DNA from: an uncultured Gammaproteobacteria bacterium | GTDB lineage: Bacteria; Patescibacteriota; Microgenomatia; JALYQM01 | Length of the DNA: 64,000 nt | NCBI GenBank assembly: GCA_964403585.1 | Contig: CAYOFQ010000001.1 | Location: 204,456 to 268,455 of the forward strand | Direction of reading: 5' to 3' | Shown here: positions 7,165 through 53,837 of the stretch, piece after piece | Position numbering within the stretch: position 1 is the stretch's first letter | Layout of the letters: each line of letters opens with the position of its first letter | Notes under the pieces: model-generated | The model's input: only the letters and a program-made list of their open reading frames with translations | What the model was told of the DNA's origin: nothing | Database searches by the model: none | Position numbers and translations under genes: made by a program

Positions 7165-7227
7165 TATTCTAAATGTACCATAGATTGCGGACTTGCCAAA
7201 TTCCTATCTTTTCGCATAATAGAAAAC

Positions 7228-21299: not shown

Positions 21300-22961
21300 A
21301 TGAACAAATGGCTGATCGCAATACTCTTTCTCGCTGCCGCGTTTCGCCTTGTTCTAATCGGCGACCACATGGGCGCCTTATACGGAGATGAAATCTCTAT
21401 CGGTTATAATGCCTATTCAATACTCAAAACAGGCCAGGACGAGTTCGGCCGGTTTTTGCCGCTTCAATTTGAGTCCTGGGGTGACCAGAAAAACCCCGTC
21501 TACATTTATACCGTCGTGCCGTTTGAAATTGTCTTCGGTCTCAATGCCTGTGCGGTACGCCTCCCCTCGGCGCTCAGCGGCATCCTCGCCATTTGGCTAA
21601 CCTATTTGCTGGTTAGAAAATTATCCCGATTTTTCGAAGACTCACCGCAAAACCGGAATAAGAGTGAACAGGTAGCATTAATTGCAGCCCTGCTTCTGGC
21701 GGTATCCCCCTGGCATGTCCATATCAGCCGGGGAGGATACGAGGCAAATATGGCACTAACGCTTGGGCTGTCTGGAGCGTATTTTCTGTTAGCGTGGCTG
21801 CAGGACAGAAAGTGGAAATATTTCCTGCTCTCAATTGGAGCATTCGTGCTCTCCATGTACACCTATTACACAACTAAATTATTTGTCCCGCTGCTCATTA
21901 TGTTACTGTGGAGCTGGGGCTATTGGATGACCCGGGAAAAGAATGCGCGAAAATTTCTTCATTTTGCCGCCCGCTATATAATCTTATTCGTTATTTTGTG
22001 TCTTCCAATTCTGTATTTAGCGCTCTTCTCCAATGGTCAGGCCCGTTTCGCTACCATTAATATTTTTTCCAACCCGCAAGTTGCCAAAGACGTCGATGTG
22101 ATGCGCAGCCCTTCAATGCTTTCACCAAGTCTTACTGAGATACTTGTGAACAAGCCATACGTCTGGTTCCGGGATTTTCTGCAGTATTATTCGGATAATC
22201 TTTCACCTTCTTTCTGGTTCGTCAACGGAGATAGCTCTTTGAGATATAGTATTGGCAATCACGGGATGTTGTATTTAATTGAAGCTCCATTTTTTCTGGT
22301 TGGATTTCTGTTTATGTTTCAGCGCAACCGGAAACTATGGATTCTACTGCTGGGGTGGATGCTATTGGCTCCGTTACCGACAGCTCTGGTGGGTAAAGCA
22401 TATGGTCTACGCAGTTTGGCACTGCTGCCGATTCCCATGATTTTTTCAGCCTACGGCTTTGTGACACTAAACGAATATATTAAAACCTACTATTCATACC
22501 GTATTGTGCGCATATTCTCGGTAATCGTCGCGTTCATTTTAATCGGATCGGTAAGCAATTGGCTGGTCCGGTACGCATATATTTATTCATCGTATGGGTA
22601 CTACTGGTATGACGGCATGACCAAAGATGCCATTTCCTATGCGCTGCAGCAGAGCCCTCGGTATAACCATGTCTTCATCTCCCGGTATTACGGAAAGACC
22701 GAAATGTACTATGCCTTTTATACCAGAATGAACCCCGAAGAATACCGCCGTTGCTCGCAGCATAAAGTGACCTATGAAGGCGAAGAAATGATACAATGTG
22801 GCAAATACATCTTTGGAGATATGGATACCAAAAACCGGGTTATAGATGACCTCCACCTTCCATCAAATTCACTCGTCATCGACGCCCCGGACGGTACTAG
22901 AGGTTCGGATTCCATACTGGCCCGAGACGATCAAAGAGAGTTGTTTAAAATAATAAAATGA
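21300..22961 (+). CDS. GT-C glycosyltransferase, PMT/ArnT-like (GT39/GT83-type, PMT_2); paralog A
   Basis: Polytopic membrane protein; first-loop DE motif YGDEISIGYNAYSIL; conserved PWH (SPWHVHISRGGYEAN) and C-terminal periplasmic domain shared with paralogs; stop overlaps the next start. Confidence 0.7.
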   Translation: MNKWLIAILFLAAAFRLVLIGDHMGALYGDEISIGYNAYSILKTGQDEFGRFLPLQFESWGDQKNPVYIYTVVPFEIVFGLNACAVRLPSALSGILAIWLTYLLVRKLSRFFEDSPQNRNKSEQVALIAALLLAVSPWHVHISRGGYEANMALTLGLSGAYFLLAWLQDRKWKYFLLSIGAFVLSMYTYYTTKLFVPLLIMLLWSWGYWMTREKNARKFLHFAARYIILFVILCLPILYLALFSNGQARFATINIFSNPQVAKDVDVMRSPSMLSPSLTEILVNKPYVWFRDFLQYYSDNLSPSFWFVNGDSSLRYSIGNHGMLYLIEAPFFLVGFLFMFQRNRKLWILLLGWMLLAPLPTALVGKAYGLRSLALLPIPMIFSAYGFVTLNEYIKTYYSYRIVRIFSVIVAFILIGSVSNWLVRYAYIYSSYGYYWYDGMTKDAISYALQQSPRYNHVFISRYYGKTEMYYAFYTRMNPEEYRRCSQHKVTYEGEEMIQCGKYIFGDMDTKNRVIDDLHLPSNSLVIDAPDGTRGSDSILARDDQRELFKIIK

Positions 22962-24739
22962 AAAAAATACTATTAGTCGGCACTATTCTCATCGGATTTA
23001 TACTTCGTTTTTACCAGTTGGGATCTATTCCGCCTTCCTTATATTGGGATGAAGTCGCCCTTGGGTACAATGCTTTTTCCATTGCCGAGACAGCTAAAGA
23101 TGAAGAGGGGAGATTTCTTCCCTTAAATTATTTCCGCTCATTCGGAGATTTTAAGCCGCCGGTATATATTTATGCAGCTGTTCCCATGATTAAATTTTTT
23201 GGATTAAGCGAATGGACGACCAGATTTCCGTCCGCGTTTTTTGGTTCTCTTTCAGTCGTGTTGTGCTATCTCATCACCCGACAGCTGCTCAAGCGGCTTT
23301 CGAGTAATGAATCTACGTTTCTCAACCAATCCCGAATCGAATGGATTTCACTCGCAGTAACTGTGCTTATGGCCATTTCACCGTGGCACACCCAAATTTC
23401 GCGGGTTGCCTATGAAGCCAATGTTGCGTTATTCCTCATCCTGCTAGGCGTATATTTATTTTTTCATGCCTTGGAAAATCAGTCACGTAAAACACTCTTG
23501 TTAACTCTCGCGGGACTCTCCTTTGTCTTAACGTTCTATACCTTCAACTCTAACCGTGTTTTTACACCTTTGTTGGTAGCATTATTAGCCATACTCTATC
23601 GTAAGCAATTATTCCCGACACAAAAAGCAATTCGTCAGGTACTGGTAGCGACACTTATCGGCTTAGCCGTATTGTTGCCGCTGCTTCCACACCTCGCCTC
23701 AAGTGAGGGCCGCCTGAGATACAAAGAAGTAAACATCTTTTCGGATGCTAAACCGGTCGAGGTTTCTAATCAACGCATCTCCCGGTTAGGAGATACCTGG
23801 TGGGCAAATATTCTCAATAATCGCCGGATTATTTATGCCCAGAATTGGTTTGACGGATATTTCAGACACTTCTCCGGTAAATTCCTATTCATTTCCGGTG
23901 ATGTTAATCCACGCTTTTCGCTGCAGGATGTCGGAGAGCTCTATCTCATCGAGTTGCCGTTTCTGATCATCGGTTTGTACCTATTTGCTTCCCGCCACAA
24001 AACCGAGCATCTCTTTGTCCTCGGCTGGATGCTGCTGGCACCAATTCCTGCTGCCTTTGCCCGCGAAACACCACATGCGCTTCGCACCCTCAACATTTTG
24101 CCGACTTTTCAGATCCTCGAAGCCTACGCCTTTATCTATGTTGTCTACCGGTTATATAAATATCAGTTTAAACAGATTCGTTTGCCGGCCATCTCAGTTA
24201 TTGCGCTGACCGTGCTATTCCTGTTTTTCAATATGTATTACTATTTGCATAATTATTACGTTCACTACCCTCGCTGGACTTCCCAGGAGTGGCAATATGG
24301 ATATAAACAGGTCATCAATGAAGTCGCCAAAGTCCAGGATCAATACGACCGGATTATTATTACCGACGGACTGGGACGGCCATATATTGAAACCGCGTTC
24401 TATCTTAAGTACCCGCCCGCTCAATTTCAGAAGGAACGCCGCCAGCACACCGATGCGACCGGTTTTGGGTTTGTTGAAGTCGATGGGTTTAATAAATATG
24501 AATTCCGCGGAATAGACTGGAAAAAAGAGATACCCAAACAGCAGGAAAGGGAGCGAGTCTTGTTGGTGGGAACACCGGCTGAACTTTCCAAACAGAAATA
24601 TTTCAAAAAAATTGTTCCCCGTTTAAACGGAGAAACCGTCTTTATCTTAAGTGATATCCCCTCAGGCATCGATGCATTAATCGAACTGGGGTTTTTAGAT
24701 GAAAACGGCAACCCGATCATTAAAGACGAAGCCCGGTAA
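22958..24739 (+). CDS. GT-C glycosyltransferase, PMT/ArnT-like; paralog B
   Basis: LYWDEVALGYNAFSIA, SPWHTQISRVAYEANVALF, LYLIELPFLIIGLYLF, LGWMLLAPIPAA and a YGYK C-terminal domain. Confidence 0.7.
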   Translation: MKKILLVGTILIGFILRFYQLGSIPPSLYWDEVALGYNAFSIAETAKDEEGRFLPLNYFRSFGDFKPPVYIYAAVPMIKFFGLSEWTTRFPSAFFGSLSVVLCYLITRQLLKRLSSNESTFLNQSRIEWISLAVTVLMAISPWHTQISRVAYEANVALFLILLGVYLFFHALENQSRKTLLLTLAGLSFVLTFYTFNSNRVFTPLLVALLAILYRKQLFPTQKAIRQVLVATLIGLAVLLPLLPHLASSEGRLRYKEVNIFSDAKPVEVSNQRISRLGDTWWANILNNRRIIYAQNWFDGYFRHFSGKFLFISGDVNPRFSLQDVGELYLIELPFLIIGLYLFASRHKTEHLFVLGWMLLAPIPAAFARETPHALRTLNILPTFQILEAYAFIYVVYRLYKYQFKQIRLPAISVIALTVLFLFFNMYYYLHNYYVHYPRWTSQEWQYGYKQVINEVAKVQDQYDRIIITDGLGRPYIETAFYLKYPPAQFQKERRQHTDATGFGFVEVDGFNKYEFRGIDWKKEIPKQQERERVLLVGTPAELSKQKYFKKIVPRLNGETVFILSDIPSGIDALIELGFLDENGNPIIKDEAR

Positions 24740-24743
24740 CGTT

Positions 24744-26465
24744 ATGCGAAGTAAATTATTACTACTGACTATTTTAAGCGCCGCACTTCTTCGTTTCGTG
24801 GGGTTGGGACACAATCCACCGGCATTAAATTGGGATGAGGTTGCTATTGGGTGGAATGCCTATTCTATACTCGAAACGGGAAAAGATGAGTATGGAGCTG
24901 TTTTTCCACTAACATTCCGCTCTTTTGACGATTACAAATCACCACTGTATATTTACCTCACTTCAGTAGCAATAATGCTGTTTGGTAAGACCGAATTTGC
25001 CATTCGTTTTACTTCTGCTTTTTTCGGCACGCTAACCGTTATTATTTTTTACTTTTTCACCAAGCGCTTACTTAAGACAGCCTCCACCGACCCAATCTGG
25101 CAAAACCGCATCGCCAATGTCGCTCTCTTTGGAACCGGCATTATGGCTATTTCGCCCTGGCATGTTCACTTCTCTCGTGTTGCTTTTGAAGCAAATATCG
25201 CCCTGTTTTTTGAAATACTCGGCACACTATTATTCTTACGTTGGGTTGAACGGCGAAAATATTCGACCATCATCTTTTCCGTTCTTGCCTACGCCGCCGC
25301 GCTGTATTCATATGCCAGTGCCCGCTTAATTATTGCTCTACTACTCGTGGGTTACGGAATCTACTTTCATAAAGTTTTATTCAAAGCCAAAAAGCAGGTT
25401 AGTCTGGCCATTATCTGTGCGTTAATTGTAAGCATCCCGCTGATCATGCAAATGTACCAGGGGGTCGGATTTGCCCGCTTTAATGCCACAACTATCCTCG
25501 GCAAAAATGTCATCGAAATCTTTACCCGCAACGATACCTTAGCTAAAGAAGACTTTGACGCCGGAAATGGCTGGCTCAGTTCCAAAGTGCACAATTTTCG
25601 CATTCCAATCGCTACCAATGTGATTCAAAATTATCTCTACCATTATAATTACGGCTTCTTATTTAATTCTGCCGACCTGCCCCGCCACCAGATTCCCGGC
25701 TTTGGATTATTGTATCTATGGCAACTCCCGTTAATCGCCATCGGAGCAGTCTTTTTAATTAAAAACAGGAAACAGATCAATGCCGTTCTTCCCTTGTGGT
25801 GGCTGTTTATTGCACCCATTCCGGCTGCTTTGACATGGCAGGTACCGCACGCCATTCGTGCATTGGCTATGCTACCCATCTTCAGTGTTTTAAGTGGACT
25901 TGGGTTGTGGGCATTCTTCAAATGGATGCAAAAAATCGACCTTCGTGCGTATACCAGACCAATGGCCACTACTACCCTGGAAAAAATGCAAAATCTATTT
26001 CACTGGATTTGGCCGAAAACAACCTATCTTCTAACCATGTTTCTCATGTCTATCTCTGCCGTCCAAATGGTCGTTAGTTACCATGTTCTGCTGCCCGCCG
26101 AATTTAGTCCGTACTGGCTGTACGGCAGAAAAGAAATGGTTAGCCAGGTGGAAAACAGAAAAAATAATTTCGATCACGTTGTTGTATCTCTATCTTTGGA
26201 TTGGGCATATCTCTGGTTCTTGTGGTACGGAAATTATGATCCGCAATGGTATTTAAACCAGGGGGGAACGGTCAGCGGAAGTTTTGAGGAATCACAAAAC
26301 ACGGTTGGAAAAATCCAATTCTTTAACTTTGATTATTTTAAGCTGAAACAAACACCAAACATTCTCATGATCGGATCACCCAAGGATTTCCCCGGCGGAA
26401 TCATTCCTGATCAACAGATTCTGGATCTTTCGGGGAAACCGATCATCTATATCGTTAAATCATGA
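24744..26465 (+). CDS. GT-C glycosyltransferase, PMT/ArnT-like; paralog C
   Basis: LNWDEVAIGWNAYSIL, SPWHVHFSRVAFEANIALF, LYLWQLPLIAIGAVFL and LWWLFIAPIPAALTWQVPHAIRAL. Confidence 0.7.
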   Translation: MRSKLLLLTILSAALLRFVGLGHNPPALNWDEVAIGWNAYSILETGKDEYGAVFPLTFRSFDDYKSPLYIYLTSVAIMLFGKTEFAIRFTSAFFGTLTVIIFYFFTKRLLKTASTDPIWQNRIANVALFGTGIMAISPWHVHFSRVAFEANIALFFEILGTLLFLRWVERRKYSTIIFSVLAYAAALYSYASARLIIALLLVGYGIYFHKVLFKAKKQVSLAIICALIVSIPLIMQMYQGVGFARFNATTILGKNVIEIFTRNDTLAKEDFDAGNGWLSSKVHNFRIPIATNVIQNYLYHYNYGFLFNSADLPRHQIPGFGLLYLWQLPLIAIGAVFLIKNRKQINAVLPLWWLFIAPIPAALTWQVPHAIRALAMLPIFSVLSGLGLWAFFKWMQKIDLRAYTRPMATTTLEKMQNLFHWIWPKTTYLLTMFLMSISAVQMVVSYHVLLPAEFSPYWLYGRKEMVSQVENRKNNFDHVVVSLSLDWAYLWFLWYGNYDPQWYLNQGGTVSGSFEESQNTVGKIQFFNFDYFKLKQTPNILMIGSPKDFPGGIIPDQQILDLSGKPIIYIVKS

Positions 26466-27266
26466 CGCTAAAACCTGCTCTTTTGCCCACTGCAGACTTT
26501 CCCAGTGTTTAGCCGGAATTCGTTCATGAGGGACATGGGACCACATCGCCAGTGAAGCCGCGAACTGGTCTTTAAACGCCCGCAGACAAATACTTTTATA
26601 AAACGCATCAATCGGCACTTGCTTTAGTTCATTGGTATAGAGCGTATACTGCCGCTCCATATAGTTGGAAATATCATCCGGAAAATAATAGTTTGGATCA
26701 TACGCAGGAGACACTGACCACTTACTCAGAAAATGGTACGTTCCCAGATTCCCGTCAACAATATCCAGAACCCGGGCAATATACGCGATCGGCAGAATAA
26801 CACATTCAGGGTCACCGTCTTTGTTCTCCAATACTGCTTTAGCTTTATTGAATTGTGAATAAAGGACATAGTCTTCCGCATCAAACATCCGCTGCGCTAC
26901 CATGTTCTCGTTAACTTCAATTTCCAGATCCGCATTATGATCAATCCCTTTATCCACGGCCGGAATATCCAGCGTCTCAATTTCCGGGAGATCATGTAAC
27001 CACAACATTCGCACCAGCATCTCTTTGTCGTCTTCTTCAATGTACAAAGATTCGGCCCACCGCACCAACCGGTGCAGATGCGCTAGGTCATTATCCGTAA
27101 TAAGATCGGGTGGATACCGGTTACTTTTGCCTCGTACAATCGATGCTGTCTGTTTAACCAGATCCTCCAAATCTTCAGGAACTTCAACAGGAATACCCAG
27201 TTTATCCCGGTAAAGGTAGGTAAACACAAATGGTTCGTACACCAGTTCGTTTTCAGGCATACACAA
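26460..27266 (-). CDS. hypothetical protein, possible HD-domain hydrolase
   Basis: HRLVRWAESL...LWLHDLPEIETLD resembles an H..HD..D metal-binding arrangement. Confidence 0.35.
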   Translation of the reverse strand: MCMPENELVYEPFVFTYLYRDKLGIPVEVPEDLEDLVKQTASIVRGKSNRYPPDLITDNDLAHLHRLVRWAESLYIEEDDKEMLVRMLWLHDLPEIETLDIPAVDKGIDHNADLEIEVNENMVAQRMFDAEDYVLYSQFNKAKAVLENKDGDPECVILPIAYIARVLDIVDGNLGTYHFLSKWSVSPAYDPNYYFPDDISNYMERQYTLYTNELKQVPIDAFYKSICLRAFKDQFAASLAMWSHVPHERIPAKHWESLQWAKEQVLAS

Positions 27267-27322
27267 AGTATATCATTTTAAGCGCATTTACCCGCACCGA
27301 GTTACAGTGTAAAATTCTTCAT

Positions 27323-27835
27323 ATGTCTGAACTGGAAATCGAAGTAACGTATCTGGCCAAATATCTTCCTCCCGGGCTGGAAGAAAGTCCGCATAGTGAA
27401 ATCTACGACAAACTTCTTACCAATGATCCGGTCTCACGAATCCGTTTACGGCAGCAAGATGATACCTACAACCTCACCAAGAAAACCAAACCCGACAGTG
27501 AAGATGCCTCTACTCATATCGAACAAACTATAGAGCTCAGTCAGACCGAATTTGAACTAATGAAAACATTACCCGGACTGGAGTTACATAAGACCAGGTA
27601 TTTTTATGATTACAACGGCCTAAAAATGGAGGTCGATGTCTTTCAGGATAATTTCGAAGGACTGGTAACCGTGGAATGTGAATTTCCCACCAGGCGCGAA
27701 AAAGATACTTTTGTGATGCCGGATTTTTGTTTAGTCGATGTAACACAGGAAAAATTTATCAGTTTTGCCTACGGAACAACCTATGAAGATTTTCAGGACG
27801 TCCTCAATAAATACAGCTATGTTCGTCTCTGTTAA
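27323..27835 (+). CDS. CYTH domain protein (triphosphate tunnel metalloenzyme / CyaB-like)
   Basis: N-terminal ELEIEVTYL resembles the CYTH EXEXK motif; about 170 aa. Confidence 0.45.
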   Translation: MSELEIEVTYLAKYLPPGLEESPHSEIYDKLLTNDPVSRIRLRQQDDTYNLTKKTKPDSEDASTHIEQTIELSQTEFELMKTLPGLELHKTRYFYDYNGLKMEVDVFQDNFEGLVTVECEFPTRREKDTFVMPDFCLVDVTQEKFISFAYGTTYEDFQDVLNKYSYVRLC

Positions 27836-29505
27836 ATAGATTCGTTACACGGCGCAATCAGCGGCAACTCGGGAGTTATTTCATACACATATCCCATTTC
27901 ATGAACTCCATTGGTAGATTTGGCTACAAATACCGGCCTAACAGTTTCCAGTTTTTTGTCACTCACATATACCAGTAACTTGCCACTCTCGCGAGCCAGA
28001 CAAACCAGGTCTTTCGGTTCTACATGTCCAACCTGCACAGACCCTAAACGCTGTGCATGCCTGAAGCCAATTTCATCCGCCGGAAGATACCTGGTCTCCC
28101 GTTGAAAAGTTTCCGGGTCGGTCTTCATATAAAATGCATAGAACATCAGCGGGTCCGAGAAGAACGGTTCGATCTGCATCGCAGTAGTTGAATCATATTT
28201 CTGCAGATAACCGGCCAACTGCCGAACATGCGAGTTATACAATATTTCATATTTAGTCGTATGAATGGTAAAAAAGTTTACATAAAACATATACGATTGA
28301 ACTCCCACTCCAGCCGCCACCACTAATGCTCCCAGGTACAGCCTCTTTCTCGGCAGCAAAGTGAATACATATTCAAACCCAAACGCTACGACAATAAACA
28401 GAAAAACAAACGAGGCCGATACCCGCATTTTATTCACATCTCCCGCCAGGATTGAAGGGATAGGCGTCGTAAATAGTGCGACAAGAACAACTAAAAATGC
28501 TACAGCATTCGTTCGCCGGTTCTTTAACAGATAATATAGTCCCGCCGCAAAGAAGGGGAGGGTAATTAGATAGAATTGCCCAAAGTCGGGAATCGAGTAC
28601 GCCAGCTGTTCCTTATCTCCACGACTAAACAAATATTCCGGTGAATACAATCCAATCAGGCGTTGTGTCAGTATCTGCCCGTACACCAGCACTTTATTTG
28701 CCGAAACGGCACACAGCTTCGGATGTAAATACAAACCGCAGTAATTACGTTCTTCAGTTATTTTCATTAATGGACCGGGATCATTGGCAAAACCAACCTG
28801 CTTGAGCCGGGATGTTCCAACGTTCCCTGCCAGTAACAACGGCACAATTAAAACCGCAGCCACCACACTCATCATTCCAATCTGCTTTAAATTTACTGCT
28901 TTCCGGTAATACAAAACGGCCAGAACCACCGGGAAAAAGAGTAACGTTACAAAACGATACGCCACATACGAATACCACGACAACAAAGCACTAACTGCAG
29001 TCAGTACCCAAAATAGCGTTCGTTTTGTTCCAATAGCCTTCAGTAAAAAAAGCACAGATAAGGCAAAAAACAACAGGCCAAGTGTCGACTCACGCCCCAG
29101 CCTGGCCATAAAAAAACTAAACGGACTTATCGCCATAATCAAAGTAGCTACCAGAGACACTCGTTTGGATATTCGTAGTTCACGCAGAATAAAATAATAT
29201 ACAGGCACCAGTGCCAATGCAGCTAACGCCGCCGGCATACGCGCAACCGCGGTCGTTAATCCAAATAGTGCAATTAACGGTACCATTGTATAGACATACA
29301 GCGGCATCTTTTGATCACCGTACGACTCGAAAACCAGAGGAAGAAATTTCCCGTGCTCATCATGTCCCGTTAACAACACCGAGTAGGCACTATATGCAAA
29401 CGCCGGCTCATCCACCAGCATGCCGTTAGGGGCAGAACCAAGGTTATAAAAATACACAAAACCCACCAGGAGAATGAGTATCATGAGCACGAGTGTACTT
29501 TTCAT
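27832..29505 (-). CDS. GT-C glycosyltransferase, PMT/ArnT-like; paralog D
   Basis: GMLVDEPAFAYSAYSVL, SPFSFFMARLGRESTLGLLFFAL, FYLITLPFFAAGLYYL; start at Met 29505. Confidence 0.65.
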   Translation of the reverse strand: MKSTLVLMILILLVGFVYFYNLGSAPNGMLVDEPAFAYSAYSVLLTGHDEHGKFLPLVFESYGDQKMPLYVYTMVPLIALFGLTTAVARMPAALAALALVPVYYFILRELRISKRVSLVATLIMAISPFSFFMARLGRESTLGLLFFALSVLFLLKAIGTKRTLFWVLTAVSALLSWYSYVAYRFVTLLFFPVVLAVLYYRKAVNLKQIGMMSVVAAVLIVPLLLAGNVGTSRLKQVGFANDPGPLMKITEERNYCGLYLHPKLCAVSANKVLVYGQILTQRLIGLYSPEYLFSRGDKEQLAYSIPDFGQFYLITLPFFAAGLYYLLKNRRTNAVAFLVVLVALFTTPIPSILAGDVNKMRVSASFVFLFIVVAFGFEYVFTLLPRKRLYLGALVVAAGVGVQSYMFYVNFFTIHTTKYEILYNSHVRQLAGYLQKYDSTTAMQIEPFFSDPLMFYAFYMKTDPETFQRETRYLPADEIGFRHAQRLGSVQVGHVEPKDLVCLARESGKLLVYVSDKKLETVRPVFVAKSTNGVHEMGYVYEITPELPLIAPCNESI

Positions 29506-29548
29506 TTTGTTGTGTATATACTGAGATAGAAAACTAGGACAATTATAT

Positions 29549-31279
29549 ATGCAACTCAAAAAAATAGGAATTATCGCCGTTTTTCTTTGTCTTATTATTG
29601 GTCTTTACCTCAGATTTTACAAGCTTACAACTGTTCCGGATATGCATTTAGACGAAATGTCGTTTGCCTATACTTCTTATTCGTATATAAAAACCGGGCT
29701 TGATGAATTTGGAAAACCTCCCGGAATTGTTTTTGAATCATTAGGCGATTACAAACTGGCACCATTTGCATTCGCAACTATGCCATTTGCTGCGATATCC
29801 GGGCTCGAGCCAATAACGGTACGATTGCCGTCTGCTTTATTCGGGTTAGGCACGGTGCTCTGTTTATACTTACTGGTAAATAGGCTCTATAAAAACAAAG
29901 CACTCGCTATCACAAGCGCATTGCTGTTGTTACTATCCCCCTGGCATATACTTTTCTCCAGAACAGGCAACGAAGCTTCACTGCAACTTTTCAGTATCAT
30001 TGCCGGAATGTACCTGTGGGCGTTATTCAGAAGCACTGAAAAGAAAAAATATCTCTTTTTATCCATACCGTTATTCTTAATCGGATTATATTCGTATTAT
30101 TCATCATTCGTATTCCTTCCTGCCTTTCTGCTGTTCCTGCCGTTGTTTAATAACAGAGGATCCCGCATCGTACACGCTCTACCCTTTGTAGTTATATCGC
30201 TACTTTTTCTCTTATTCTTTTTAACTCAGCCGACCCAGCGCGTAGGCCAAACCAGTTTTTTTAAGCATGGAGAAGTAGAGGCGTTGGTTACCGAAAGTCA
30301 TAGTGAAGAGAATGGTACGTTGCCGTTACCGATCGTCAGACTAATCCACAATAAATTCACTGTTGGCACGCAGTTATTGATTCGCAATTATTTCCAGCAC
30401 TACACCTACAACTTCCTTTTTCTTGAAGGCGATCCCTCATATGGAAGATACTCGTTACCGTTCCAGGGGCCGCTATACATTTGGATGCTTCCGTTCCTGG
30501 TCATCGGCGTAGGTATAGCATCACATAAAATGATCGTGAACAAACAGTGAATTTACGGATTAATGGTACTCTGGATGGCCATAGGTTTTTTGCCCGATTC
30601 CCTCTCATTCGAAATTTATATTCAGCGAACCTTACTGGTATTACCGGCGTTAGTATTTTTCACTGCTTTGGGGCTCATTTCTACCTACACGTACCTTGTC
30701 AAAAATTTTCCTAAATTTAATCCACAACCAATTTTATATATACTTAGCGCCGGAGTAATGATTGTTTCGCTGGTGCTTTTTTGGGACGCCTATTTTATCC
30801 ACCAGCGGATCCACCAGCCATGGCATCGGCAGGGGTGGGCACATGAATTTATAACAACGTTAAATCAGTTGGCTCCACAATATCCTCAAACAGTCATTGC
30901 CCGGGATTCACATATCCTGTACCTGTTTAATGAAAAGGTTGAGCCTCAGGAAGCACAGCAATTGCTTCGAGGAAATATTTCATCCAACGGCAGTTTCAAC
31001 TCTTTGACTAAATACAAGGACTATTTATTTATGCCAAATGATTGCCCGCTCGCCGGCAAATTAGATGTTCTTTATGTTTGCAACGGCGAAAAAATTCCAT
31101 TCAATAGCAAGGTACAAGCAGTTATCCGCTACCCGAGCAACGTACCGGCAAAAATCTTCATTACCTTTACTGAGCCAACTGCTGAGAACAGCCTAACCAA
31201 GGGTGACCGAATCAGTATTATGGAGGATACGATTAAAGATCCTAAAATCTTATCGGACGAGTATCCCGGTTACTGGTAA
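29549..31279 (+). pseudogene. GT-C glycosyltransferase, PMT/ArnT-like; paralog E interrupted by in-frame TGA at 30548-30550
   Basis: ORFs 29549-30550 and 30563-31279 are in the same frame; the sequence across the TGA (HKMIVNKQ*IYGLMVLWMAIGFLPDS) aligns with conserved KNRKQINAVLPLWWLFIAPIPAA of paralog C. Confidence 0.6.
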
Positions 31280-32836
31280 TTATTTAAATCGTTCCTCAAC
31301 CAATAATTTTCTGAAATTTTTTCGCGCTGTGGTCGGCCGTACTTGTAACCGCTGTATTCTCGAAAAGTCATTATTTAAGCCACCAACTAATCCTTCAAAC
31401 GGCTCGTAAATCGAAAAGTGTCTATCGCTATACTTCTCTGTCTGCGGCAATAGATCTCCCCCGGCCCGTCCGTCCTGATTAGCTCCATAAAACTCCGGCA
31501 CATAGCCATACGTCTTTTTACCATACCAGCTATACAAATACGCCCAGGTAGTATTAATTTCATACGGATTGGTATACGTCGAGAAAGTAAACGGCTGTTT
31601 GTTTGCTTGCTGGTACGTATAATCTATCAGCGCCAGTTGATCGCGCAACGTCGCCTCTTTCTGTATCACAAATATGCTCACTCCTTCGGCTTTGCGCAAC
31701 AGGAGGAATTGCACGTTAATATAGAGCAAAACGCTCAGTAGCGCCACAGTAATTATCCGTCCGGCTACACTCTGCCAGATTGTCACTAATGCAAAACTCA
31801 CCACGATATATACAAGCAGGGAAACGCCCAACAGTGAATGACTCTCACTGCGAGGTTGTAGCAGTTCCACTACCAGCGGTGAAAGCATAATTATCGCCAC
31901 AAAATACTTCGCCTGTTTTGCTGCATACCAAAGAAACGCACCAAGGCTGATGAGAAACAATGCAGCGGCAAAAATCTGGTAAATATCCCAGGGAAGCAGG
32001 GGGAGCGAAATTAGTTCATAGTACACTCGTGAAATAACTTTAAGTTTATCCGCCCAAAACAAACTCCGTTCCGAAAAATCCTGTAAATCCCGACCGGAAA
32101 ATAATCCGCTGCGTAATATCCGCACTTCAGTCAAAATCATTGTCGCAATAGTTAATACATAAAACACGACACCGAGTAGCACCGGCCACGAGGGAACAGG
32201 GAATTCTTTTCTGCGCCGTAAAATAATCACGGCCCCAACAAACATTGCTACCCACAAATAAACAGTATAGAGAAATGCCTGATTCGCCAACCCTAAGAAC
32301 AAAAACAGGAGCGGGATACGATTGTATGCCTGTTCAAAAACCACCCGCCAGTACAGATAGAAAAACACGCTCAAAATAATGGGCACTAACGCCGGATTGG
32401 AAATCCACACACCTGCGTGCACCGGTTGTCCAAATACCGCAAACATAAAGCTTGCCAGAATGCCTACCAGTGTACGTCCGGTAATTTTCTGCGCCAGAAG
32501 AAACACTGGAATGACGGTTAGCGAATTCAGAAAGCTTAACGCTACCGCCACCCAATACGGACTGCCTCCAAAGAGGGTATACAATAACCCGATCAGGTAA
32601 TAATAAAACACCCCATGATACAAAATATCATTCGAGCCGCTCGCCGATGGCCCTTGTATCTTTATGTCACCTTTTTCAAAAATACTTCGCGAAACCGCCG
32701 CGTCCCGCGCTTGATCATAAAAGAAATGCACATCATTATTGGAGATAACCGCCAAACGCACTGCAAAAGCCAAAACCACTAAAGCAATAATAAGTAAGCG
32801 GGTATTAGAGCGAGATATCTTGACCATTTTTTCCAT
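31280..32836 (-). CDS. GT-C-like polytopic membrane protein, divergent subfamily (FFYDQARD loop motif); paralog H
   Basis: About 13 TM helices; N-terminal loop FFYDQARDAAVSRSIFEKGDIKIQGP is paralogous to FLFDQGRDMLDVKEIVVGHHPTLIGP of the 34942 gene. Confidence 0.45.
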   Translation of the reverse strand: MEKMVKISRSNTRLLIIALVVLAFAVRLAVISNNDVHFFYDQARDAAVSRSIFEKGDIKIQGPSASGSNDILYHGVFYYYLIGLLYTLFGGSPYWVAVALSFLNSLTVIPVFLLAQKITGRTLVGILASFMFAVFGQPVHAGVWISNPALVPIILSVFFYLYWRVVFEQAYNRIPLLFLFLGLANQAFLYTVYLWVAMFVGAVIILRRRKEFPVPSWPVLLGVVFYVLTIATMILTEVRILRSGLFSGRDLQDFSERSLFWADKLKVISRVYYELISLPLLPWDIYQIFAAALFLISLGAFLWYAAKQAKYFVAIIMLSPLVVELLQPRSESHSLLGVSLLVYIVVSFALVTIWQSVAGRIITVALLSVLLYINVQFLLLRKAEGVSIFVIQKEATLRDQLALIDYTYQQANKQPFTFSTYTNPYEINTTWAYLYSWYGKKTYGYVPEFYGANQDGRAGGDLLPQTEKYSDRHFSIYEPFEGLVGGLNNDFSRIQRLQVRPTTARKNFRKLLVEERFK

Positions 32837-34874
32837 CCTTAGTGAGGATCGTCCGCTTTAAAGCGCCTTGTTTATCCAGCAAAATAATTGTTCCTCCACT
32901 GTACCCGGCCAGCTGCGCATCATACTGTTTCTCCAGACCCTGTACTCCGTGGTAGTTATAACTACTATAAATCCGTGTACAGCACTCTGTATACGCAGTA
33001 TTAGTGATATGGGTATAGTCGGAGTTGGAATAAATGCGTGCAGGATAAGGAGTAACATAAACACCTTTATACGAAAGTAATTCTTTCTGATCTTCGGCTT
33101 TCAGGTCCTGCCACGTTGTCATCAGCATTGTCGGAACACCCGTTAAACGATTCTGCACATAATAGTCATGAATAACAACCGCCGTAAACCCGGTGAACCG
33201 TTCCAGAACATGCAGCAATTTTTCTTCCTGCTGTACCTCAATTTCATCCGGTCGCACGGAAATAGCAAATCCCTGTTTGTCTTGCACAAGCACATGTCCG
33301 CCTTGCGTAATTGTTCCACGTTTCCCTAAAACCAGTGAAGTTTTAACGGTATCTTCCGGGGAAAAATCCGCCAGTAATAACCCCCAGTTCCATTCCACGC
33401 CCCAGCGGTTATGCACTCGTTTCAGCTGTAACTCTTTCGTTTCGGTAAATGATCCCAAATCCTGCGTATGATACGTCAATTCAACGTTTACTTTCCCGTT
33501 ATCTCCCGCAAATTCCCGTGACACCTCTTTAAATGAAATTGCCCTGACACCGGCATTAAATAAGGCGGTCTTGGCAATTGTCTGAAACATCTCCCGTTCT
33601 GTCGCCTGCACGCTTGAACGGGTTGTGTTTTCCTGGTACACATCAGAGAAAAATTGCTTTGAAAAATTCGTATAATATCCGGCTAATACCGAATCCGGCT
33701 TAGCTGTTAAAAAGCTTGGGGCATACAACAGTAAAATAATAATCGCCATAACAGCCACAGTTCCCGGACCTTGAACCCGACGATAGCCTAATGAAAACTT
33801 GGCAACCAGTAAATAAATAAACGGCAGTACCAGCAATAAGTAGCGGCTGTAAAACGGAATGCGCATGTACATAATAATCGACGCAATTAGGATGAGTGCC
33901 ATTCCTCGCCACACCAGAGTTTCCTTTTTCGAATACAGCACATATACCGCCACGCCTAAGCCGATCGCGCCCAATATCGGCCACAAGTACGTCCACTCAA
34001 TTACCGTTTCCAGGTTACCGGAGTTAACATTCGGCACCTTACCGGTAAATAATGATTGAAGTACTCCCAGCGGATGCAAAGGCAGTTTTGAAATAAGATA
34101 AATCGTCGCGATATATTTATGGAATTTAACCAGTTCAAGTATGCTGTGACCGAGCATAAAATAGCGGGCATACACCAGCAGAACCGCTACACCAAAACCG
34201 GCATAGTAGGCAAAAACCTCTTTCCACCAGCGTTTTTTTACCAAATAAGCTGTCTCCAACAACACCAGGACTGGAAATAATGTCTGCATTTTCGTTTCAA
34301 AGAATAAACACACCGCCGCACCACTCAGCACCGCCAGCCATAATCGCCTTCGTTCACTTTCCACCAGATACACAAAAGCAGACAAGTTCAACAGCAGGAA
34401 AAACAACTGGTAAATATCCAGCCAGGATTTCCAAAGTTGGGAAAAGAACAGGGGATCAAGATAAAACAGTGTCGTCACCAGCAATGCCGCCGACCTGTTT
34501 TTCAAAAGCTTTACACCTAATAAGTACAAACACACTAACGACCCAACACCAGCCAAAAAGGCCATCCACGCCACATTCCCGAACCACTTAATTGAAAAAC
34601 CAACCAGATACAGCGCCGCCGGTGGCTTATCTGTAATCACCAGCGACGGATCATCCCCCTGACTCAAACGGTACCCGGCATGGGCATACAACGCGTCATC
34701 ACCAATCGGGCGCTGGGATAACCGCAGTTGCCACTGCGAATGATCATAGCGATCCTTCCAGTACGCCACATCATACTTTTCACTAAAAGAGGTCCAATTA
34801 TAGGAAAAAATCAAATACGTCTGTATTACCAGCATTACTATACAGAAATAGGGAAGGAGTTTTGCTATTTTCAT
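32805..34874 (-). CDS. GT-C glycosyltransferase (PMT/ArnT-like, DD motif) fused to C-terminal PBP-dimerisation-like domain; paralog F
   Basis: N-terminal membrane domain with IGDDALYAHAGYRL; the C-terminal ~270 aa soluble domain ends with GLEKQYDAQLAGYSGGTIILLDKQGALKRTIL, which resembles the G.EK.YD..L.G..G......D..G signature of the PBP2/FtsI dimerisation domain. Confidence 0.5.
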   Translation of the reverse strand: MKIAKLLPYFCIVMLVIQTYLIFSYNWTSFSEKYDVAYWKDRYDHSQWQLRLSQRPIGDDALYAHAGYRLSQGDDPSLVITDKPPAALYLVGFSIKWFGNVAWMAFLAGVGSLVCLYLLGVKLLKNRSAALLVTTLFYLDPLFFSQLWKSWLDIYQLFFLLLNLSAFVYLVESERRRLWLAVLSGAAVCLFFETKMQTLFPVLVLLETAYLVKKRWWKEVFAYYAGFGVAVLLVYARYFMLGHSILELVKFHKYIATIYLISKLPLHPLGVLQSLFTGKVPNVNSGNLETVIEWTYLWPILGAIGLGVAVYVLYSKKETLVWRGMALILIASIIMYMRIPFYSRYLLLVLPFIYLLVAKFSLGYRRVQGPGTVAVMAIIILLLYAPSFLTAKPDSVLAGYYTNFSKQFFSDVYQENTTRSSVQATEREMFQTIAKTALFNAGVRAISFKEVSREFAGDNGKVNVELTYHTQDLGSFTETKELQLKRVHNRWGVEWNWGLLLADFSPEDTVKTSLVLGKRGTITQGGHVLVQDKQGFAISVRPDEIEVQQEEKLLHVLERFTGFTAVVIHDYYVQNRLTGVPTMLMTTWQDLKAEDQKELLSYKGVYVTPYPARIYSNSDYTHITNTAYTECCTRIYSSYNYHGVQGLEKQYDAQLAGYSGGTIILLDKQGALKRTILTKDGKNGQDISL

Positions 34875-34941
34875 AACTACCTAAGAATAGTACCATTATA
34901 CACAAGTACAGCCTAGGTACTGCCCAAAACGTTGAGAGTAT

Positions 34942-36444
34942 ATGAAAAAAATACTGCAATTCTGCATAAATGAATTCCGGCAGCACAAGCTGGATTATCT
35001 GCTCATACTGCTCATCGTACTCACCTCAGCCTTCTTCCGTTTTAAACCGCTTTTTACCGGAGATTTTGTGTTTCTTTTTGACCAGGGCCGCGACATGCTC
35101 GACGTCAAAGAGATCGTTGTCGGTCATCATCCAACACTTATTGGACCATTCACTGGTATGAAAGGGTTATTCCAGAGCCCGATGCATTATTACCTGTTAG
35201 CCATTCCTTTCATACTCACCGGAGGTCACCCGGCGGGAGGCATCGCCTTTACCATTATCACGTTTTTGGTTGGCATAACCCTGGCCTATGTTTTGGGTAA
35301 ACGCATGTACGGACGCCTTTTTGGACTATTTTTCGCCCTCATTTTTGCTTTTGCCCAAGGCTCAATGAGCAATTCCGCTAATTTCTGGAATCCTAACTGG
35401 ATCCCGCCGCTCATGGTGCCCTATTTATATTCGTTGTATCGCAGCAGAAAAGACCTTCGCTGGTTGCTCGCCGTCAGTTTTCTCGTAGGGTTGATGTCCC
35501 AGTTCGAAGCCGCCTTTGGCGTCATGCTGCTTATTTCAACCCTGTTGTTTTTACTCGTCTCATATCCGAAAGTATTCATCTCCAAATGGTTTTATCTCTC
35601 CGGCATCGCCTTTGCGATCAATTTTATACCGCAGGTCCTTTTTGACATCCGCCATGAGTACATGATGACCAATACCTTAGTCAATTTAATCACCGGTCGA
35701 ACCGAATCCTTGGGTATACCAATCCCATTCGATGTCCGCTTCTGGTACCGCATCGATGAAGTAACCAAAGCCACCATTTTTACAATACTCTACGATCGAA
35801 CACTCGCCCTGACAACACTTATCCCGATTCTTGGCACCCTCATAATTGCCGTTAGGAAAAAAGACTGGTCGACCATCAAAGCCCAACTGTTCTTTGCCGG
35901 CATTCCCTTCTGTTTGTTCCTCGTTTTCCTGGCCTTTCCACTTCCCGCCTGGGCGTGGTACTGGACGGGTCTACAAGTTTGCTACTATGCCCTAGTTGCG
36001 TATTCCTGTGCCTATCTTTGGCACTTCCATAAATTCGCCAAAGTTCTCGACGCCCTATTGCTCGCTCTCTGGGTAGGCTTGGCCACCTTCCCGGCCTTTA
36101 TTCCTTCCAACATGCCCGAAGAACCGGGAACCTTCAAAACCCAAGTTAAAATTATGGACGATATCTACGCCGATGCCGCCGGAGAACCGTTTGGTGTTTT
36201 TGTTTACACTCCTCCCATTTATGACTTCGCGTTCAAGTATTTGTTCTGGTGGCGGGGCATCACTAAATACAATTATGTTCCAACCGACTCCAAAGACGGC
36301 ACGTTCTATTTAATCATTGAACCCAACAAAGACAATCCACTCGCCATCGACGGTTGGAAAAAGACAGTCATTAAAGAAGGACAAACCGTCTGGACCAAAA
36401 AATATCCGGGAGATATTGAGGTAGAGAAGAGACAGGGGAAATAA
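34942..36444 (+). CDS. GT-C-like polytopic membrane protein, divergent subfamily (FLFDQGRD loop motif); paralog I
   Basis: About 12 TM helices plus a C-terminal soluble domain; paralogous to 31280-32836. Confidence 0.45.
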   Translation: MKKILQFCINEFRQHKLDYLLILLIVLTSAFFRFKPLFTGDFVFLFDQGRDMLDVKEIVVGHHPTLIGPFTGMKGLFQSPMHYYLLAIPFILTGGHPAGGIAFTIITFLVGITLAYVLGKRMYGRLFGLFFALIFAFAQGSMSNSANFWNPNWIPPLMVPYLYSLYRSRKDLRWLLAVSFLVGLMSQFEAAFGVMLLISTLLFLLVSYPKVFISKWFYLSGIAFAINFIPQVLFDIRHEYMMTNTLVNLITGRTESLGIPIPFDVRFWYRIDEVTKATIFTILYDRTLALTTLIPILGTLIIAVRKKDWSTIKAQLFFAGIPFCLFLVFLAFPLPAWAWYWTGLQVCYYALVAYSCAYLWHFHKFAKVLDALLLALWVGLATFPAFIPSNMPEEPGTFKTQVKIMDDIYADAAGEPFGVFVYTPPIYDFAFKYLFWWRGITKYNYVPTDSKDGTFYLIIEPNKDNPLAIDGWKKTVIKEGQTVWTKKYPGDIEVEKRQGK

Positions 36445-36458
36445 TAAATTTAGTAAGG

Positions 36459-36464
36459 TATAAT
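36459..36464 (+). promoter_or_regulatory. -10-like hexamer TATAAT 7 nt upstream of GTG 36472
   Basis: GGTATAATCTCCACA-GTG with no SD. Confidence 0.3.
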
Positions 36465-36471
36465 CTCCACA

Positions 36472-38103
36472 GTGAAGAAATTTCTATTCTGCACCATTCT
36501 TATACTCGCAATTGCACTCAGGTTCTACAAACTTGGCGTCGTACCCGGCTCACTCGATTGGGACGAAGTCTCCCTTGGTTACAATGCCTATTCATTATTA
36601 CTCAACGGCACCGACGAATACGGCAATACCTGGCCCTTATCCATTCGCTCATTCAATGACTACAAACCGCCTGCCTATGCCTATTTGGACATCATCCCGA
36701 CTGCCATTTTCGGTTTGAATGAATTTGGCACCCGCTTTCCGGCAGCGTTCTTTGGTTCACTCGCAGTGATTGGGGTATATTTTCTCACCAGAGAATTATT
36801 TCGCAATGAATCCAAACTCCCGCTTATCGCCATGTTTATTTTCGCCATCTCACCCTGGCACTTACAGTTCTCCCGCGCGGCCTTTGAAGGCAACATCGCC
36901 GTTTTCTTTGTAATTTGGGGAATGTATTTTCTCCTACGCTGGTTTCGCAATAACAAGCTGTATGAACTATTACTTGCCGCCGGACTGTTCGCCGGATCAC
37001 TCTACGCCTACCACGCCGCCCGCCTGATCGTTCCGTTGTTACTCTTCGGCGTAGCACTGAGGTACCGAAAGCACTTTTTAGCCCGAAAGCAATCCGTACT
37101 TACCGCGGCCGCCCTCGGTATAATTTTAGTTCTTCCAGTTGGTCTCACCTTAATTCGCGGCAGTGCCTCTGAACGGTTCTCTTCAGTCAGCATTTTTAGT
37201 CCGACGACCGAAATTCTTCGTCCGCTGGAATATGAACGCGAAGACAAAGCCACGGTGAACTGGAATTCCTGGTTACACAACCGCCGAATCGAATACGTCA
37301 AGGAATTTGTCGAAGGCTATGTTAATCATTTCAGTCCGGTGGCGATGTTCATGAAGGGCGACGTTGTCGAACGGCACCATGCTCCCGACATGGGATTATT
37401 TTATGTTATTGAATTACCGTTTATTCTAATCGGCATCTTTACCCTTATTGAAAAGAGATTTAATTATAAATTCCTGTTCTTCTACTGGGCGGCCATTGCA
37501 CCGCTACCTGCGGCTATCTCAACCGGCACGCCCCACGCCATTCGCAGCATTTTATATTTACCGCTCCCGCATATCGCCATCGCAGTGGGAATTTTCCAAA
37601 CGTATCAATTCATGACACAATATTTTAAGCAACCTAAATTCAACACCAGAACTCCCGCTATAACCATCGGAATTATCTTCGCGCTCTATCTCGGCAACTT
37701 TGCCTATTATCTCAATCAATATTATGGACATATGAACGTTGAGTATGCCGAATACTGGCAGTACGGCTACAAGGATTTAGTCGAGTATCTCCGACCAATT
37801 GAAGGTAAGTACGACAAGATCGTCGTAACTCCTGCCTACGATCAGCCCTATATTTACTTCCTCTATTACAAACAATACGATCCCCGGGTTTGGATTAATA
37901 ATGGTGAATTTAATAAAGGTTTCGATAAATACGAATTCCGCAAAATGGACTGGTATCAGGATCGCAAATTGCATAACACCCTATTAATAGGGGATAAGCT
38001 GGAAATTCCGGAGGGCGAAGCCGGAACCATTAAAGTGTTGCGCTATCCCGAAGGAACCAAAGGAAACCGGGACATTTTCAGGATCATTCCCTCGCAATAT
38101 TAA
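36472..38103 (+). CDS. GT-C glycosyltransferase, PMT/ArnT-like; paralog G
   Basis: GTG start; LDWDEVSLGYNAYSLL, SPWHLQFSRAAFEGNIAVF, FYVIELPFILIGIFTL, YWAAIAPLPAAISTGTPHAIRSI and YGYK C-terminal domain; TATAAT 7 nt upstream. Confidence 0.7.
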   Translation: MKKFLFCTILILAIALRFYKLGVVPGSLDWDEVSLGYNAYSLLLNGTDEYGNTWPLSIRSFNDYKPPAYAYLDIIPTAIFGLNEFGTRFPAAFFGSLAVIGVYFLTRELFRNESKLPLIAMFIFAISPWHLQFSRAAFEGNIAVFFVIWGMYFLLRWFRNNKLYELLLAAGLFAGSLYAYHAARLIVPLLLFGVALRYRKHFLARKQSVLTAAALGIILVLPVGLTLIRGSASERFSSVSIFSPTTEILRPLEYEREDKATVNWNSWLHNRRIEYVKEFVEGYVNHFSPVAMFMKGDVVERHHAPDMGLFYVIELPFILIGIFTLIEKRFNYKFLFFYWAAIAPLPAAISTGTPHAIRSILYLPLPHIAIAVGIFQTYQFMTQYFKQPKFNTRTPAITIGIIFALYLGNFAYYLNQYYGHMNVEYAEYWQYGYKDLVEYLRPIEGKYDKIVVTPAYDQPYIYFLYYKQYDPRVWINNGEFNKGFDKYEFRKMDWYQDRKLHNTLLIGDKLEIPEGEAGTIKVLRYPEGTKGNRDIFRIIPSQY

Positions 38104-52699: not shown

Positions 52700-52733
52700 A
52701 GTAATTCTATAATTGTCTGCCAAAGGAGTTCAA

Positions 52734-53459: not shown

Positions 53460-53464
53460 TAACT

Positions 53465-53836
53465 ATGTCAAACAATAATAAAATCTCTACCGGGAATGCC
53501 TTAGTAGAAGGACAGGATCGACGAGGCTGGTATGTTGGAGCTTTCATTGAGCCTGAGGGAGCACTACAGCACAACGCCGATGTCGAAATCAAATGGGGAA
53601 TACACCCCAAAGATGAGCAGCGCTCGAGCAAGGCCGGAGAAGGCAATGCGACCACAATGTCGGTTCTTATTAGAGGAAAGTTTGGGATTACCTTTAAAGA
53701 TCAGGAAGAAATTGTACTGGAAAAAGAAGGCGATTATGCCATTTGGAATCCTAATATCCCGCATGAAACTATAGCCTATGACAATTCGGTAATTTTAACA
53801 GTTCGGTGGCCGTCACTTTCAGCCGCAAAAAACTAA
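53465..53836 (+). CDS. small cupin-like protein
   Basis: 123 aa, beta-rich sequence with H..H/E pattern; weak assignment. Confidence 0.3.
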   Translation: MSNNNKISTGNALVEGQDRRGWYVGAFIEPEGALQHNADVEIKWGIHPKDEQRSSKAGEGNATTMSVLIRGKFGITFKDQEEIVLEKEGDYAIWNPNIPHETIAYDNSVILTVRWPSLSAAKN

Positions 53837-53837
53837 T

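Follow-up and report, generated by a model that had tools for sequence, protein, structure and literature searches.

A nine-gene array of GT-C-type glycosyltransferases in a probable, old cell-envelope glycosylation region of Patescibacteria

Clustered paralogs of GT-C glycosyltransferases are known in mycobacteria (embCAB and the aft genes), and protein O-glycosylation offers further parallels with several paralogs, namely PMT1-7 and TMTC1-4 in eukaryotes and Pmt in Actinobacteria. A three-component system of extracytoplasmic glycosylation, combining PPPRS, a MATE flippase and a GT-C enzyme of family GT136, has been described for the addition of pentofuranoses (PMC11127046). Here we analysed a stretch of 64,000 nucleotides, referred to as the window, which covers positions 204,456 to 268,455 of contig CAYOFQ010000001.1 (assembly GCA_964403585.1) from an uncultured bacterium of the GTDB lineage Patescibacteriota; Microgenomatia. 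Between its positions 21300 and 38103, nine polytopic glycosyltransferases of the GT-C type are encoded, which were named A to I. We consider it probable, with moderate confidence, that this locus is an old and conserved cell-envelope glycosylation region of Patescibacteria of the Microgenomates type.

The open reading frames (ORFs) listed between 19 and 41 kb included a long one at each of the nine gene starts reported in a preliminary description of the window. The same genes were called independently on two Logan assemblies (SRR16481186 and SRR16481187), the contigs of which matched the window with 100% identity along stretches of 12.3, 7.1 and 6.3 kb. The coordinates are collected in Table 1. 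The nine genes occupy both strands, as had been proposed, and B overlaps A by 4 nt, but they are not strictly back to back, as two unrelated small genes (26460-27835), neither of them of the GT-C type, stand between C and D and break up the run.

The assignment to the GT-C/PMT_2 family was confirmed with Pfam, since A, B, C, D, H, I and the first part of the split gene E (E1) scored above the curated cut-off of PMT_2 or PMT. The gathering score of PMT (PF02366) was exceeded by B and D (Table 1), E1 (37.1 bits) and I (40.5 bits) and was not reached by A, C, F, H or G, the last with 18.9 bits against the cut-off of 22.7; PMT_2 was equal or better in most of the proteins. The Pfam scan gave no family match for F. 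More specific models were not approached. The NCBIfam ArnT equivalog NF009784, with a cut-off of 567 bits, gave 19 bits for I and no score for the other members; the Pmt equivalog NF058602, with a cut-off of 800 bits, was matched by E1 only (18.3 bits), and the best score with the Agl23 model TIGR03663 (cut-off 126.25 bits) was that of C, with 45.2 bits. No Pfam family beyond PMT/PMT_2 was found in A-E and I, and hence no MIR or further PMT-type domain was detected in them.

The fold was examined on an AlphaFold2 model of I, built with an alignment of 27 sequences, which had a mean predicted local distance difference test (pLDDT) of 88.8 and a predicted template modelling score of 0.88. When this model was compared with the PDB using Foldseek, GT-C enzymes only were retrieved at E ≤ 1e-3 (STT3, AglB, PglB, ArnT, Pmt4, ALG9, Pmt1/2 and AftD). 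The fold agreed with the family assignment, and the window proteins are GT-C enzymes by both, not transporters carrying a DE motif by chance. In structural scores AglB, ALG12 and ArnT were as good as or better than the PMTs. Considering that the templates of oligosaccharyltransferases (OST), ALG enzymes, ArnT and PMTs scored similarly, the assignment of a donor or an acceptor from the structure was dropped.

An all-against-all BLASTP of the window GT-Cs resolved three groups. Subfamily 1 is formed by A, B, C, D, E, and I, which are 27-36% identical over nearly their full length (27-33% between A and each of B, C, D, and I). Subfamily 2 is formed by F and H; their direct similarity was located only near the C-terminus, and they were joined via many intermediates from related loci that were matched by both queries. 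Subfamily 3 consists of G alone. The nine genes had been taken as true paralogs; this held for A-E and I, whereas the whole set comprises three GT-C subfamilies. These could be related to each other at the level of profiles. The profile of the F/H family (24 sequences) aligned by hhalign with that of subfamily 1 with 98.2% probability, over about 210 columns in the N-terminal ~230 residues, and the nearly invariant Asp of the F/H motif F-x-D-Q-G-R-D fell on the Asp of W-D-E. With the G-family profile (25 sequences) the probability against subfamily 1 was 96.2%.

The first-loop motif was found as it had been reported, with DE in A-E and I (Table 1) and GDD in G; F and H carry YDQ/FDQ where the other seven have DE/DD. 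This acidic motif is predicted from sequence to provide the catalytic residue. Across 27 subfamily-1 sequences, residues D31, E32, D48, E49, D63, K65, R135, and E139 (numbering of I) were invariant, and all eight are retained by the six window members of this subfamily, which argues for active enzymes and not for decayed copies. In the F/H family D41 was conserved in at least 90% of the sequences, and in the G family D59 was invariant. Other features that the preliminary description had attributed to the array as a whole were more restricted. The two segments SPWH...EAN and LYxIELPF, as well as the C-terminal domain, were present in A-E and I, in varied form in D, E, and I, and were absent from F, G, and H. 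A Tyr-rich C-terminus was seen in A and I (11.3% and 14.0% Tyr in the last 150 residues), while in the other members this content was 4.7-7.3%.

Each window member had an orthologue in another genome that was closer to it than any paralog of the window. In what follows, L003, L006, and L007 designate loci of close relatives. The best orthologues of A, B, and C, with 61%, 73%, and 65% identity, were located in L003/L007, and the orthologues of B in Chisholm- and Gottesmanbacteria were 42-46% identical. For I, the orthologue identities were 73, 65, and 44%. The best orthologue of D (37%) was L006:8238-9965, those of F (46%) and H (43%) were also found in L006, and the best identities for E and G were 40% and 38%. 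A neighbour-joining distance tree, without support values, was built with 70 subfamily-1 proteins from 17 loci; it placed each of the six window members in a different clade, in agreement with the identity figures. The clade of I was shared with loci labelled Gottesman-, Levy-, Chisholm- and Roizmanbacteria, that of C with Levy-, Chisholm- and Woesebacteria, and that of B with Gottesman-, Levy-, Chisholm- and Woesebacteria. A was grouped with L003 and Gottesmanbacteria, D with its L006 counterpart only, and E with its L006 counterpart and one Gottesmanbacteria gene (L012). A recent local expansion, which the density of the array had suggested, was not borne out, as the paralogs are 27-36% identical and the orthologues 37-73%, in separate orthogroups of the tree. 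The origin of the array as a recent duplication or a cassette system was likewise rejected, since DNA repeats were absent and the orthologues were closer than the paralogs. Judging from these sequence comparisons, the paralogs are ancient and the duplications older than the divergence of these lineages.

Similar arrays are common in relatives. A search of 5.8 billion proteins with I gave 3963 matches at E ≤ 1e-10 among the 8000 candidates scored; those with a name were called 'glycosyltransferase family 39 protein' or 'ArnT-like' and came from Patescibacteria, Gottesmanbacteria, and Levybacteria. An alignment-based scan of one genome per GTDB species yielded at least 539 relatives, and the best 80 loci, nearly all from Microgenomates-type metagenome-assembled genomes (MAGs), were examined. 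In the 43 loci with full flanks, ±10 kb around each match were scanned with the profiles of the three subfamilies at a threshold of at least 100 bits. The median was 4 GT-C ORFs per locus (range 1-7), two or more were present in 42 of the 43, and the longest uninterrupted runs reached up to 6. Counting the window in this way gave 6 around I and a total of 9. At a lower threshold, the Gottesmanbacteria-type loci L031, L037, and L049 contained 8 within the 10 kb upstream, in a series ending at the flank limit; L031 and L049 are labelled Gottesmanbacteria and L037 is titled 'uncultured Gammaproteobacteria'. It was also possible to see that in many Microgenomates loci H-type genes come after the I/C-type gene. 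The window is therefore the upper end of a common pattern and not an outlier. The statement that this is not a described system needs to be qualified accordingly: the members are annotated automatically among thousands of proteins of Patescibacteria MAGs, and arrays with 3-7 or more members are usual among them, while a literature search found no paper describing or characterising GT-C arrays of Patescibacteria (candidate phyla radiation, CPR), with the limit that the searchable literature is incomplete and this does not prove that none exists.

Some other observations were made on these loci. A 649-aa ORF stands in the middle of the array in GT-C loci of Gottesmanbacteria (L004:6447-8396 and L012 at about 6432-8391). 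The copy in L004, which has no Pfam match, was considered as a hidden GT-C and discarded, as hhalign gave only 6.8%. Many of the TPA_asm MAGs with these loci (L007, L011, L013, L014, and others) have the implausible title 'uncultured Gammaproteobacteria/Pseudomonadales bacterium', and single matches are labelled Bacteroidota and Pacearchaeota. All these labels are probably placeholders or the result of mis-binning.

Gene E is split. An in-frame TGA at 30548-30550 ends E1, and the same frame resumes as the ORF 30563-31279 (E2); E1 and E2 align to the N- and C-terminal halves of the paralogs. The stop codon is also present in a second assembly (L001), 100% identical, which makes an assembly error unlikely. 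A recoding of TGA was rejected, since TGA ends 11 of the 59 ORFs of the window and translation table 11 yields long intact ORFs throughout. Taking into account that TGA is an ordinary stop here, that the second assembly contains it and that an intact orthologue of 576 aa spanning both halves exists at L006:19495-21225, E is most likely a pseudogene or a gene in two pieces, as far as can be read from the sequence.

The most unusual part of the locus is the fusion of a GT-C with a pedestal of penicillin-binding protein (PBP) type in G. The GT-C-like membrane domain comprises residues ~1-390. From residue 374 to 689, the protein can be aligned with positions 8-326 of the 668 of NCBIfam MECA_PBP2A, a region that comprises MecA_N and the pedestal/dimerisation domain and ends at the transpeptidase boundary. 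G has no transpeptidase domain, as the alignments to the PBP2a model end at 326/668, where the protein also ends; the gene downstream is GT-C F and not a transpeptidase. The AlphaFold2 model of G (pLDDT 83.2) had as its best Foldseek matches PBP2a, PBP5fm and B. subtilis PBP3, with E 1e-13 over ~310 columns, and the GT-C/PBP fusion was absent among the solved structures matched to G. An exhaustive HMMER search of 1.84 billion representatives gave 155 cluster representatives at E ≤ 1e-30, mostly of ~690 aa and aligned end to end; where they have a name, it is 'hypothetical protein'. By these matches the fusion is a conserved architecture without a name. In class B PBPs (bPBPs) a PBP region of this type contacts SEDS polymerases, and in PBP2a it binds peptidoglycan fragments. 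By analogy, the pedestal of G suggests that at least part of the system may work at or on the peptidoglycan layer.

Downstream of I, the window continues with a FAD protein, a lipoprotein-like ORF, a tRNA-Arg, a GT2, a GT4, a Wzx-like protein, a second GT2, a GT4, a 963-aa fn3+CBM60 protein, an SDR, a third GT2, a PIG-L deacetylase and an EamA transporter. The FAD protein resembles UDP-galactopyranose mutase (UGM) at its N-terminus: it aligned with UGM in the PDB with E 1e-10 over residues 5-186, while the UGM model TIGR00031 gave 62.9 bits against a cut-off of 303.75, over the N-terminal ~170 residues only. NF005548, the NCBIfam family to which it belongs (Table 1), is unnamed. The second GT2 (GT2b) matched GtrB (5ekp) and ArnC next after its best PDB match. 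The EamA/SMR-like protein is from the transporter superfamily that also includes the lipid-sugar flippases of the ArnE/F type. The genes for the UGM-like protein, GT2a, GT4a, Wzx, GT2b, GT4b, SDR, and GT2c are kept at 63-85% identity in L003, L006, and L007, with the FAD protein at 83-85%, above the conservation of the adjacent GT-Cs. The content and order of the GT-C array vary between these loci. The array of L003 is A-B-C-I, with nothing between C and I; that of L007 is A-B-C followed by the CYTH-like small ORF, ~2 kb without match to window genes, and I; in L006 it runs C, small ORF, F, an H-like gene, H, a D-like gene, and I. Elsewhere in L006 (17355-21225), Wzx and GT2b are followed directly by the intact E-type GT-C.

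Three further ORFs deserve mention. The small ORF at 27323-27835 appeared CYTH-like by eye only (EIEVTYL…), and a homologue (55-60%) adjoins the C orthologue in L006 and L007. The lipoprotein-like ORF at 39733-40398 has a homologue (42%) at the same position in L006 and would be a plausible acceptor of O-glycosylation. A polytopic protein at 62249-63748 on the minus strand (499 aa, ~9 hydrophobic segments, without Pfam match) was tried as an additional GT-C and rejected because hhalign was negative against both profiles; it could be a polymerase of the Wzy type or a ligase.

Table 1: Features of the GT-C array and of the genes downstream (window positions; scores in bits, followed by the cut-off where given).
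Feature	Position	Strand	Evidence
GT-C A, 553 aa, subfamily 1 (ArnT/PMT_2-like)	21300..22961	+	Pfam PMT_2 41.4 bits vs 26.1; GDE first-loop motif
GT-C B, 593 aa, subfamily 1	22958..24739	+	Pfam PMT 33.6 bits vs 22.7; WDE motif
GT-C C, 573 aa, subfamily 1	24744..26465	+	Pfam PMT_2 32.7 bits; WDE motif
HD_3-domain protein, not GT-C, inside array	26460..27266	-	Pfam HD_3 29.6 bits
Small soluble ORF inside array, 170-200 aa	27230/27323..27835	+	No Pfam or NCBIfam match
GT-C D, 557 aa, subfamily 1, divergent	27832..29505	-	Pfam PMT 25.6 bits vs 22.7; VDE motif
GT-C E, subfamily 1, split: E1 333 aa + E2 238 aa	29549..31279	+	E1 PMT_2 53 bits; LDE motif
GT-C F, 518 aa, subfamily 2	31280..32836	-	F-x-D-Q-x-R-D first loop; no Pfam match
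GT-C G, 689 aa, subfamily 3	32805..34874	-	GT-C membrane domain + PBP2a-like N-terminal half (non-catalytic); Pfam PBP_dimer 46.5 bits
GT-C H, 500 aa, subfamily 2	34942..36444	+	Pfam PMT_2 31.3 bits vs 26.1; FDQGRD motif
GT-C I, 543 aa, subfamily 1, best conserved member	36472..38103	+	WDE motif
FAD flavoprotein, 503 aa, UGM-like N-terminus	38149..39660	+	NCBIfam NF005548 446 bits vs 389
Lipoprotein-like ORF, 221 aa	39733..40398	+	Signal …LLLTAC; Ser/Thr/Pro-rich N- and C-terminal segments
GT2	42410..43342	-	Downstream cluster
Wzx/MOP-type flippase candidate	44641..45999	+	Polytopic, ~13 hydrophobic segments; 63-65% in L003/L006/L007
GT2b, candidate polyprenyl-phosphate-hexose synthase	45996..46772	+	Best PDB match Pyrococcus Dol-P-Man synthase 5mlz, E 4e-20
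fn3 + C-terminal CBM60 protein, 963 aa	47953..50844	+	Inside glycosyltransferase cluster; 60% conserved in L007
PIG-L-family de-N-acetylase + EamA/SMR-like transporter	52713..54704	+	Distal end of glycan cluster

The UGM-like, Dol-P-Man-synthase-like GT2, Wzx and GT4 neighbours suggest that the probable cell-envelope role of the locus would be the assembly or decoration of a surface glycan outside the cytoplasm. Catalysis by the GT-Cs and their use of a polyprenyl-phosphate donor are predicted, with indirect evidence only from the nearby Dol-P-Man-synthase-like GT2. The following scheme concerns donor, acceptor, pathway order and catalytic activity, which we infer, as distinct from the gene content, fold, motifs, orthology and synteny presented above. 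GT2b would load a sugar on polyprenyl phosphate in the cytoplasm, the MOP/Wzx-type protein would flip the loaded donor, and the GT-Cs, acting on the outer side of the cytoplasmic membrane, would transfer the sugar to different acceptors or to different positions. The acceptor might be a cell-wall glycan or polymer, a lipid-linked or surface glycan, or a surface protein; a glycan or wall polymer is favoured by the genomic context and by G. Considering that each paralog has its own orthologue across Microgenomates, it most likely performs a distinct, non-redundant step, with another acceptor or another linkage.

Several points weigh against this cell-envelope reading. The biochemistry of every member is predicted from sequence and structure, and the similar scores of the OST, ALG, ArnT, and PMT templates do not fix the class of donor or acceptor. 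By the NCBIfam model the FAD protein does not qualify as a true UGM, and only 17 of 72 loci have it less than 2.3 kb downstream from their I orthologue. The Wzx candidate scored 22.2 bits with Pfam Polysacc_synt, under the cut-off of 28.2. GT2b has no obvious transmembrane helices and might alternatively be a common Leloir GT2 in a repeat-unit pathway of the Wzx/Wzy type. The order of the GT-Cs is shuffled between close relatives, which weakens the idea of an ordered assembly line.

The preliminary description had also raised a diversification system resembling phase or antigenic variation, that is, a recently expanded and switchable set of alternative glycosyltransferases. The existence of many paralogs on both strands, with the divergent pairs D/E and G/H, the inactivation of one member (E) by a stop codon and the different gene order in close relatives would fit such a system. 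Nevertheless, the paralogs are only 27-36% identical to each other, each with a closer orthologue elsewhere, and the two assemblies are 100% identical across the region. The machinery for variation was searched for in the DNA. Tandem Repeats Finder returned three trivial rows only; the repeat finder detected only matches of 18-40 nt at 70-89% identity, at chance level, and the inverted repeats were limited to four weak pairs 6.8-9.3 kb apart. Switching through homopolymer tracts was discarded, as homopolymers of at least 8 bases are absent from the array and those of 7 were not enriched (8 of 44 in the array, which is 26% of the window). The ORFs from ~12.9 to 62 kb of the window, all but a few short ones, were scanned and contained no recombinase or invertase. 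The scan for promoters and terminators was uninformative, with 38 promoter-like sites found and 38.0 expected, the chance level. Variation of this kind is largely refuted, and we regard it as highly improbable.

Protein O-glycosylation by PMT-like O-mannosyl- or hexosyltransferases that differ in their protein acceptors (S-layer proteins, pilins, lipoproteins) is a possible but less probable explanation, for which the multi-paralog families of eukaryotes and Actinobacteria mentioned above are a precedent. The Pmt equivalog was matched with 18.3 bits against 800, A-E and I contain no Pfam domain other than PMT/PMT_2, and AglB, ALG12, and ArnT score as well as the PMTs or better; the surrounding GT4s and the Wzx and UGM-like genes, moreover, resemble polysaccharide synthesis. 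Somewhat more doubtful is that the arrays constitute an extracytoplasmic assembly line for an undescribed, lineage-specific cell-wall glycopolymer, in which each ancient paralog would form a single linkage with sugars from lipid-phosphate donors, a furanose provided by the UGM-like flavoenzyme possibly among them, and G would couple the synthesis of the polymer, or its attachment, to peptidoglycan. If true, the system would be the GT-C equivalent of the SEDS-bPBP pairing. It seems unlikely, finally, that some or all of the members are non-catalytic proteins with the GT-C fold, acting as lipid-linked-sugar binding or flippase-associated scaffolds comparable to the archaeal Agl23 type or PIG-U. 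The scores with TIGR03663 are far under its cut-off of 126, and catalytic GT-Cs score far above PIG-U. Furthermore, the acidic first-loop residues and several charged residues do not vary among the 27 subfamily-1 sequences. The same holds almost without exception for the Asp of the F/H family, and without exception for D59 of the G family.

Patescibacteria are abundant, mostly uncultured and thought to live attached to host cells. For such small genomes (the source contig has 1.57 Mb and a related complete chromosome 1.09 Mb), up to nine or more extracytoplasmic glycosyltransferases are a large investment, the size of which suggests a central role of surface glycans or glycoproteins in the biology of these bacteria. 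What is new here are uncharacterised members of the GT-C/PMT_2 type, and neither a new class of enzymes nor a new genetic mechanism. The orthogroups and the fusion of GT-C and PBP pedestal offer a starting point for the comparative and experimental glycobiology of Patescibacteria.

By comparison with known systems, ArnT (GT83, undecaprenyl-phosphate-L-Ara4N:lipid A transferase) and the Pfam PMT_2 (PF13231) group are among the closest, although the sequence identity to ArnT is about 10%. Patescibacteria, for their part, are generally considered to have neither an outer membrane nor lipid A. The protein O-mannosyltransferases (GT39; yeast Pmt1/2/4 and actinobacterial Pmt) differ from the window proteins, which occur as many paralogs per genome and in a context of the polysaccharide type. 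With the class B PBPs (PBP2a/PBP5fm/PBP3), G shares the MecA_N and pedestal/allosteric region in its C-terminal ~310 residues, in sequence and in fold, but the single N-terminal membrane anchor of those proteins is replaced by a whole GT-C membrane domain and the transpeptidase is missing. A comparable logic is seen in the mycobacterial set (embC-embA-embB and AftA-D, beside glf/glfT2), where several GT-C arabinosyl- or mannosyltransferases coexist; three-component systems of post-polymerisation glycosylation are another parallel. The Emb and Aft proteins are larger than the window GT-Cs, carry large carbohydrate-binding domains at the C-terminus and are members of other GT families; the UGM-like protein of the window is not a bona fide Glf, and no DprE1/E2 or decaprenyl-phosphoribose genes were present among the window ORFs scanned. 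The three-component systems (GtrA/GtrB/GtrC; CsbB/GtcA/YfhO; PMC11127046), each consisting of a synthase for a polyprenyl-phosphate sugar, a flippase and a GT-C, differ in that a single candidate donor module of the window would supply as many as nine GT-Cs, and in that the flippase candidate of the window is Wzx-like, under the Pfam cut-off, with no small flippase of the GtrA type found. Their layout is nevertheless matched in L006, where Wzx, GT2b and the E-type GT-C stand together.

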